Part shown: positions 14,569-17,021 of the stretch, one piece after another
Position numbering within the stretch: position 1 is the stretch's first letter
Layout: each line of letters begins with the position of its first letter
Source: Escherichia coli
GTDB lineage: Bacteria > Pseudomonadota > Gammaproteobacteria > Enterobacterales > Enterobacteriaceae
Assembly: GCF_044647545.1 (NCBI RefSeq)
Contig: NZ_CP172818.1
Direction: 5' to 3' (one strand)
DNA: 64,000 nt
Notes under the pieces: model-generated
The model's database searches: none
Seen by the model: the letters and a program-made list of their open reading frames with translations, nothing else
What the model was told of the DNA's origin: nothing
Program-made: the position numbers and the translations under genes

Positions 14569-15405
14569 CGTAACTCTGGCCAGTACGCTTTGTTGGCCTC
14601 CAGCAACTCATCCAGAATAGCTTTGGCGACCGAGGCGCTCGGTACCGTTTTCGACAACGTAATCGCCTGCCACAGGTGCTGATATGAACGCTGTTCCCAG
14701 GCGTCCACGACCAGTTTTTCCACCGTCACTTGCTGACTCATTAACCCTTTCTGAAACTGCGGGATATCGCCGACCACCATTTCCCACAAAAAACAAAAAA
14801 AAAAAGTGGTTCAGGCCGTAGTAGCGCACGCGCATCTGTTTGCGATCTTGCAGCCCAACAATTTGCGCCATCCGGCTTTCAATACCGATTGGCATGTCAC
14901 AGATGTTGAGGATTTTCGCATTCGGGCGCAGACGACGCGTGGCTTCTGCGACAATGGCTGCCGGGTTGGAGTAGTTGAGCATCCAGGCATTTGGTGAATA
15001 TTTTTCCATATAATCCACCAGTTCCAGGACGCCGCCAATGGAACGCATGCCGTACGCTATTCCGCCGGGTCCGCAAGTTTCCTGACCAACAACGCCGTGG
15101 CGCAGCGGGATTTTTTCATCCAGTTCGCGCATCGGGTATTTGCCGACGCGGATGTGCGCCATGACAAAATCAACGTCGCTGAATGCCACTTCAGGATCGG
15201 TGGTGTAACTAAACGCAATGTCCGGCGCTTTTTCTTTAAGGATGACTTTACAGGCTTCGGCAATCACTTCCTGCCGCGCACCATCGTTATCATAAAATTT
15301 CAGTGCACGAAGCGGGAAACGGTCCTGATTCGCCAGGAGCATCAACACGATGCCTGGCGTAAAGGTGCTTCCACCGCCTGCGACAACCACTGAGAATTTG
15401 GTCAT
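14565..15405 (-). pseudogene. glvG: Family-4 6-phospho-glucosidase GlvG, disrupted (frameshift plus apparent internal deletion at a homopolymer)
   Basis: N-terminal 197 codons ([20 protein letters not shown]...YYGLNH) run into an A/T homopolymer at about 14786-14805; the C-terminal about 70 codons (…[27 protein letters not shown]...) are in another frame; total far shorter than a roughly 440-aa GH4 enzyme. Confidence 0.8.
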
Positions 15406-17021
15406 TATACTGCCTCCGTAATGGCAACATTTTCTGCTGATTGATGAGAATTAATTAAGCTATCGAGCTGTTCACGCAGCTGGGATACATGCAAACCAAT
15501 GATCACCTGAATGGCATCGCCACTACGGAAGACGCCGTGCGCTCCCAGCTTTTTAAAGACTTCGTCATCCAGCGTTTGTGACATGTCATGCAGTGCAATA
15601 CGTAAACGCGTCGCGCAATTGTTGATGCTGGAGATATTGCCGACCCCGCCCAGGGCTTGCAGGATACCGGCAGCCTGATCCAGCTCTTTTTTTGGCTCTG
15701 CCGCGGTGGTTTGGCCTCGCGAGGCTTTGTATTCGGCTTTTGAGTAGAGTTTCACTTCCGCATCTTCACGTCCCGGCGTGCACATGTTGAATTGCAGAAT
15801 CAGGGTGCGGAAAACCACGAAGTACAGCAGGGTAAAGCACAACCCAATGGCGATTTGGGTCAGCATCATATCCGCGTGGTTGCTGAACATTGGGATCCAG
15901 TTTTGCGGTAAAACCTGGTCAATCAAACCACCGCCCATGTTGCCCACCACACCAAAGAGATACATTACGGTCGACATTGAGGCCGCCAGCACGGCGTGTA
16001 CCGCAAACAGCAACGGTGAAATGAACAGGAAGGTAAATTCCAGCGGTTCGGTAATTCCCACCAGCATGGCGGTTAAGGTTGCGGGGATCAGCAAGCCCGC
16101 CACTTTTACCCGATTTTCCGGTGCGGCAGTGAAGTACATCGCTAAAGAAATGCCCACGGCACCAAAGATTTTTGAGTTACCGTGCAGGGCAAAACCGCCT
16201 TCCGGGAACAACGATTTCAGCGGCTCGGCGCTCAAACTGAACTCTTGCAGATGCTGCGCCCAGTACATCTGAATGCCGCCTTCAACAGCTGCCGGACCAA
16301 AGATAAACGGTCCGTAGATGAAGTGGTGTAAACCGGTTGGGATCAGAATACGTTCGAGGAAGGTGTAAACCCACACCCCAAGCGCACCCGCCGAACGCAG
16401 GAACGCTTGCAGAGATTCAATCCCCATTTGTACTTTTGGCCAGCCGAGCAACGTCAGCCAGGCGCAAGGGATCATCACCAGGAAGGCGATAATCACCACA
16501 TAAGACGTCCCCTGGAAAATGCCGAGAAAAACCGGCAGTTTTTTATCGAACAGACGGTTATGCAGCGCCGTCACAATGCCGGAAATGATAATTGCGCCGA
16601 TAATGCTGGTATCGAGGGTTTTAATCCCGGCCATCATTGTCAGACCGCTACCTGCCACCGCGTCCTGAGTGAAATCGACGCCGAAGTAGCTTCCCCAGGT
16701 CATTCCCATCGCGTTGATAAAATAGTTCCAGGTCAGGAAACTCACCATCACCGCCAGACAAGCTCGCCCCTGCGCTTGCTTAGCAAGGCCAATGGGTAAA
16801 CCGACAGCAAAAATCAGCGGCATATTACGGAATACCGTCCAACCGCCCTCTTCAATAATATGTACGATTTGCGCGAATAAACTGTTCGGATCGGTCAGTG
16901 ATTCCCCGACAAACATCGGGTTTTGCAGCAAGATGGCAAGACCCACCACAATCCCGGCGAAGGGAAACAGCAGCACTGGCGTGAACATCGCGCCGCCAAA
17001 GCGTTGAATTTGACTGAGCAT
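15405..17021 (-). CDS. glvC: PTS alpha-glucoside-type EIICB component (GlvC with C-terminal IIB domain)
   Basis: 538 aa from ATG at 17019-17021 ([18 protein letters not shown]...) with AGAGGA upstream; C-terminal IIB motif NCATRLR; track ORF is extended upstream in-frame. Confidence 0.85.

Follow-up and report, generated by a model that had tools for sequence, protein, structure and literature searches.

Alpha-glucoside-specific permeases of the phosphotransferase system (PTS) form a subfamily, described by the TIGR02005 model ("alpha-glucoside-specific PTS transporter subunit IIBC"), whose members include AglA from Klebsiella pneumoniae and GlvC/MalP from Bacillus subtilis (PMC5309279). A review lists glvBC as an alpha-glucoside PTS EIICB (PMC10305011), and older annotations call it arbutin-specific (PMC2617782). 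In the reference genome NC_000913.3 (K-12 MG1655), the locus is annotated as two separate coding sequences (CDSs), glvC (b3683, 368 aa) and glvB (b3682, 161 aa), over 1617 nt. Here, we analysed a stretch of 64,000 nt from E. coli (hereafter, the window), in which the same 1617 nt constitute one gene, glvCB. Our main reading, to which we give a probability of roughly 90%, is that positions 15405-17021 carry the intact ancestral E. coli glv transporter gene, that its product would be a single-chain PTS EIICB of the glucose superfamily and of the alpha-glucoside subfamily, hence the counterpart of AglA and GlvC/MalP, and that the split found in K-12 is a nonsense mutation (Q369*) of the K-12 lineage.

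Translation of 15405-17021 on the minus strand yields 538 sense codons followed by TAA, without any internal stop, so that the single uninterrupted ORF described by the original prediction does exist. Chance cannot account for an open frame of such a length together with two domain matches of this strength. According to the ORF listing, the same frame is open upstream as far as 17282 (minus strand), which corresponds to 625 aa. The ATG at 17021 is the RefSeq start of the identical gene in strain FDAARGOS_497, and a Shine-Dalgarno-like AGAGGA (17029-17034, minus strand), read directly from the sequence, lies 7 nt upstream of it. The designation of this gene as glvCB (aglA-like), encoding a PTS EIICB permease, is based on its translation, on its identity with the FDAARGOS_497 CDS and on TIGR02005. 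It is divergent from yidP (17317-18033, plus strand), a gene encoding a GntR-family regulator whose annotation was transferred from a 100%-identical stretch of FDAARGOS_497 and which is a candidate regulator of the glv operon. On the other side, glvG, which follows glvCB, is convergent with yidL (13675-14568, plus strand), with an overlap of 4 nt; yidL encodes an AraC-family regulator, its ORF is seen in the window and its annotation was transferred from FDAARGOS_497 and K-12.

The 538-aa protein comprises an EIIC membrane domain (residues 10-346; 15984-16994, minus strand; Pfam PF02378, E 3.7e-71) that includes GITEPLEF, the GITE motif of the glucose family, at residues 322-329. A last transmembrane (TM) helix is predicted by a hydropathy scan at about residues 386-408 (15798-15866, minus strand) and corresponds in the alignment to the final helix of PtsG. 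It is followed by the core of an EIIB domain (residues 453-482; 15576-15665, minus strand; Pfam PF00367, E 2e-12), which aligns with the PtsG IIB structures 1o2f and 3bp3. The NCATRLR motif occupies residues 468-474, the phosphorylatable cysteine being Cys469 (codon 15615-15617, minus strand). The domain order is thus EIIC then EIIB, within one ORF, as had been proposed from the sequence at the outset, and no IIA family is found among the Pfam matches of the 538-aa GlvCB. Furthermore, the protein reaches 959.2 bits with TIGR02005 for a cut-off of 607.3, the match spanning positions 1-524 of the 524 of the profile and residues 2-523 of the protein. GlvCB scores far below the cut-offs of the PtsG, NagE and MalX models; for instance, the PtsG-specific models TIGR02002 and NF008301 give 316 against a cut-off of 592 and 247 against 647, respectively. 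Judging from this family membership, the substrate range of GlvCB probably consists of alpha-glucosides.

The alignment of the 1617 nt of K-12 with those of the window is free of gaps and contains 18 substitutions (98.9% nucleotide identity): 16 are synonymous, one leads to P238Q and the last one is a C to T change at nt 1105. Read in one frame, the K-12 span gives the protein of the window with a single stop at codon 369. This codon (15915-15917, minus strand; alignment column 1105) is CAG (Gln) in the window and TAG (amber) in K-12 MG1655. The glvC/glvB split in K-12 is therefore due to the CAG to TAG change at codon 369 (Q369*). The original prediction supposed that the K-12 annotation splits or pseudogenises this region, from which the window would differ, and both points hold, since b3683 and b3682 cover the same 1617 nt in NC_000913.3. 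It would have been contradicted by the same contiguous ORF in the reference, but the K-12 frame is closed by the TAG at codon 369. It had also suggested looking for a frameshift in the reference: this candidate is rejected because the 1617 nt show no gap in the alignment, the lesion being a nonsense substitution. The K-12 stop sits upstream of the last predicted TM helix, and K-12 "GlvC" consequently lacks this helix as well as the IIB domain. K-12 "GlvB" corresponds to the C-terminal 161 residues, i.e. the last TM helix, the linker and the IIB domain, with a restart at Met378. In K-12 strains carrying supE44 (glnV44), readthrough of the TAG at codon 369 would insert the original glutamine. 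The other nonsynonymous difference, P238Q (codon 238, 16308-16310), adjoins the conserved LHHFIYG segment. It is common to K-12 and APEC O78, both deleted for glvG, and is absent from the window, from FDAARGOS_497 and from E. coli B; P238Q may mark the deletion-bearing lineage.

The frequency of both alleles of codon 369 was estimated in 5,426 complete E. coli genomes with 34-mers for which a megablast seed is possible only with the exact allele. The TAG 34-mer was found in 348 genomes and the CAG 34-mer in 3,921 of them; the sum of these numbers (4,269) equals the count of genomes in which most of the glvG junction query is present. The glv locus is entirely absent from about 1,150 of the 5,426 genomes. 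All 40 TAG genomes among the matches listed (a spread sample), including MG1655, DH1, C600, MC4100, TG1 and J53, look like laboratory strains of the K-12 lineage or close relatives. Moreover, the gene of the window is identical over 1617/1617 nt to the FDAARGOS_497 CDS encoding WP_000952127.1. This protein, which is the same as that of the window, is also that of STK77-E, 94_0962 and 789, and at least 1,000 public contigs encode exactly this GlvCB protein. The uninterrupted glvCB is thus the norm in the species, and K-12 is the exception. The difference from the reference pointed out by the original prediction is real, although what was presented as a departure from the reference is the usual state of the gene (3,921 CAG versus 348 TAG). 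The difference between the window and K-12 comes from the descent of the former from another, FDAARGOS_497-like lineage, and there is nothing unusual at this locus: the intact glvCB gene is already known and ordinary, and it is here in its normal state.

The situation of the downstream gene is different. In the window, as in FDAARGOS_497, the ATG of the glycoside hydrolase family 4 (GH4) gene shares one base with the stop codon of glvCB (TAATG). FDAARGOS_497 and E. coli B have an intact glvG, whose product is a 6-phospho-alpha-glucosidase of 440 aa comprising the two GH4 domains (PF02056 and PF11975). As initially noticed, glvG is disrupted in the window sequence: there remains a 265-aa ORF (14608-15405, minus strand) that retains the N-terminal GH4 domain PF02056 alone. 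Alignment delimits a 5' remnant encoding this domain (14806-15405, minus strand; PF02056, E 9e-67) and a 3' remnant (14565-14779, minus strand) in another frame than the 5' part, its C-terminal GlvG sequence being carried by a 74-aa ORF (14565-14789). They are separated, at the junction of a 508-bp deletion, by an A-rich filler of 26 nt (14780-14805) that reads (A)TTTCCCACAAAAAACAAAAAAAAAA(A) on the plus strand and is probably an artefact.

A deletion with the same endpoints is widespread. In K-12, the glvG pseudogene (b4556) lacks 508 bp between two short direct repeats (AGTGGTTC). The clean junction of this deletion, in which ...GCCGACCACC directly joins AGTGGTTCAGG..., is found in 2,621 of the 5,426 genomes, among them those of APEC O78 and of an O111 strain. 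Hence, the catabolic glv operon is broken by the 508-bp deletion in about 61% of the genomes that carry the locus. Compared with this natural allele, the window has the same endpoints, but its junction is not clean, 26 A-rich nt being interposed. The junction with filler has no contiguous match in the 5,426 E. coli genomes, in the GTDB representative genomes or in the JGI metagenomes; no second copy of the 26 nt exists within the window, and no protein record corresponds to the chimeric GlvG product of 265 aa. Without the filler, the flanks (3.8 kb) share about 100% identity with those of genomes that have an intact glvG, but at most 98.9% with those of every deletion-bearing genome of the spread sample. 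Simple descent from a strain bearing the natural deletion is therefore unlikely, since the flanks match genomes with intact glvG and not deletion carriers. The disruption of glvG in the window is probably an artefact of reconstruction and not the true state of the strain. From a quality-control standpoint, it may be an artefact and is not to be read as biological before the source reads are checked.

Other parts of the window have a bearing on its integrity. Apart from three exceptions, the window shows 99.8-100% identity with FDAARGOS_497. Each exception sits at a structural difference between the FDAARGOS_497 lineage and K-12. The first one is located downstream of uhpA, where the FDAARGOS_497 island begins and then shows 28 small gaps in 2924-3149, mostly corresponding to a missing G. 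It continues with a strand-asymmetric A-rich tract of low complexity (3150-4737, 1.6 kb), whose A content increases from 0.5 to 0.81 and which has no megablast match among the 5,426 E. coli genomes. After this tract, the window resumes exactly at the ilvN stop codon, and eight substitutions that match neither K-12 nor FDAARGOS_497 are found in 4754-4960; no further substitution private to the window occurs in the next 5 kb. The longest common subsequence between 3150-4737 and the FDAARGOS_497 island is 1406, for about 1317 with shuffled or reversed controls. By this measure, the A-rich tract appears only partly derived from the island, and a thinned full copy of the latter is not borne out. 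Altogether, 2924-4960 looks like an artefact of reconstruction, assembly or generation rather than biology. The second exception is the filler in glvG. The third one, 50747-60186 (9.44 kb, from cbrB to bglG), shows zero differences from K-12 MG1655, although its flanks are FDAARGOS_497-like and FDAARGOS_497 has a different island (7.4 kb) at the cbrB-bglG site. The 3' end of yieH beside this block is the divergent FDAARGOS_497 allele, and the yieH/cbrB joint is nowhere contiguous above 95.1% identity among complete E. coli genomes, which suggests a chimeric sequence. Taken together, these three anomalies make the window look like a hybrid or faulty reconstruction leaning on K-12 and not like a natural chromosome. 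Small intergenic indels relative to FDAARGOS_497 were also seen at 10254-10290, 30980 and 61772, where K-12 also differs structurally. They lie at the site of presence/absence of yidI and at REP-like sites, and a loss of 9 nt breaks a GC-rich hairpin at about 30960-30985. Either natural REP variation or additional faults of the sequence could explain these indels.

Since the window contains such unnatural stretches (3150-4737, the filler and a K-12-identical block with non-K-12 flanks), one may ask whether the uninterrupted glvCB is itself a product of the way the window was built, the gene of the real strain being broken. This is very improbable: 14803-21000 is 100% identical to FDAARGOS_497, without gaps, the exact protein is already on public contigs, and K-12 sequence leaking into the gene would have brought TAG and not CAG. 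In addition, all 18 positions that discriminate K-12 carry the non-K-12 base, which is that of FDAARGOS_497, and the glvCB ORF itself is therefore trustworthy. The endpoints of the glvG deletion and the block from cbrB to bglG, both as in K-12, could also evoke a K-12 derivative with a reversion of the amber codon to CAG. The 18 nucleotide differences from K-12 within the gene, 16 of them synonymous, refute such a reversion, and the identity of the flanks is 96-98% with K-12 but about 99.9-100% with FDAARGOS_497, so that its probability is practically nil.

Whatever the state of glvG in the strain itself, the transporter gene is found whole next to a deleted glvG in other strains. All nine non-K-12 genomes sampled among those with the glvG deletion carry an unflagged CDS of 1617 nt for glvCB (one of them was seen in part), and three of the nine encode exactly the GlvCB protein of the window. 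Furthermore, roughly 2,270 genomes deleted for glvG keep CAG at codon 369. The whole glvCB of the sampled deletion genomes indicates that an intact glvCB associated with a deleted glvG is the commonest natural configuration.

Two explanations of this configuration can be considered. According to the first one, glvCB would be open but already decaying, i.e. cryptic and functionless since its partner glvG is dead, and would simply not yet have acquired a disabling mutation. The spread of the 508-bp deletion (2,621 genomes, about 61% of the carriers), the stop that K-12 went on to gain in the transporter and the genomes devoid of the locus (about 1,150) are in favor of such a decay. So is the result of a sigma-70 consensus scan of 14400-17400, in which no promoter-like site was found, although this result is compatible with either a cryptic operon or an operon requiring an activator. 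In the same interval, terminator-like sites are not more frequent than in shuffled sequences. However, the 1617-nt ORF is kept in the nine sampled non-K-12 deletion genomes (including the one seen in part), no TAG genome outside the K-12 group appears among the 40 matches listed, and the clade of the window itself has an intact glvG. We consider this decay possible but doubtful.

According to the second explanation, GlvCB would be retained in lineages lacking glvG for a role independent of the hydrolase, which could be either the uptake and phosphorylation of alpha-glucosides later processed by another enzyme, or signalling. Such a role would explain the whole ORF in 9/9 of the sampled non-K-12 deletion genomes and the CAG kept in roughly 2,270 deletion genomes. 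Across ten genomes with the deletion, the segregating sites of glvCB comprise 5 nonsynonymous and 20 synonymous ones (pN/pS 0.08). For the control, namely the 5' portion of the dead glvG that is still in frame, the corresponding numbers in these ten genomes are 1 and 9 (pN/pS 0.03). Because the dead glvG is equally biased, the synonymous bias reflects inherited or imported variation and not current selection. Overall, we consider a hydrolase-independent role unlikely.

The K-12 sequence also has consequences for annotation. K-12 is atypical at the glv locus, where "glvC" and "glvB" are the two halves of a single EIICB gene cut by one amber codon, and this split has spread into annotation, full-length permeases across E. 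coli being named as IIB. In RefSeq, the full-length 538-aa EIICB bears the name "PTS sugar transporter subunit IIB", which understates the protein. NF007255, a 161-position equivalog, matches residues 378-538 only (15405-15890), which is the extent of the K-12 GlvB fragment; full-length permeases are called "subunit IIB" because NF007255 carries this name. TIGR02005 would name the 538-aa protein correctly. The protein cluster (90% identity) to which GlvCB belongs also contains 6-phospho-alpha-glucosidases of 440 aa, perhaps because glvCB-glvG products that were fused or mis-called linked both families during clustering.

If GlvCB works as expected from PTS biochemistry, phosphate would pass from PEP to EI, then to HPr and to a IIA protein that is not part of GlvCB, most likely IIA-Glc (Crr). 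The IIA protein would phosphorylate Cys469 of the IIB domain, and this phosphate would then be transferred to an alpha-glucoside while the IIC domain translocates the sugar. The resulting 6-phospho-alpha-glucoside would normally be cleaved by the GH4 enzyme GlvG, whose gene, immediately downstream, is presumably translationally coupled to glvCB. With glvG as it is written in the window, i.e. without its C-terminal domain, the catabolic pathway would reach a dead end.

Among known systems, the closest one at the same site is the K-12 glv locus, which, like that of the window, lies between yidL and yidP and has the same endpoints for the 508-bp deletion of glvG. The two loci differ at codon 369, which is TAG in K-12 and CAG in the window, and at codon 238, which encodes Gln in K-12 and Pro in the window. 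At the level of structure, GlvCB aligns end to end with E. coli PtsG, the glucose permease EIICB-Glc (PDB 8qsr and 9hnp; E 1e-57 with 8qsr). Both proteins share their fold family, their architecture, the GITEPxEF motif and the C(A/I)TRLR cysteine loop, but the scores of GlvCB far below the cut-offs of the PtsG models make PtsG a paralog and not an ortholog. With the alpha-glucoside EIICB subfamily defined by TIGR02005, GlvCB has in common the C-B domain order and the lack of IIA. A GH4 6-phospho-alpha-glucosidase gene is linked to glvCB as in this subfamily, but it is truncated in the window, where only PF02056 is left, while FDAARGOS_497, whose flanks are identical, has the full enzyme.
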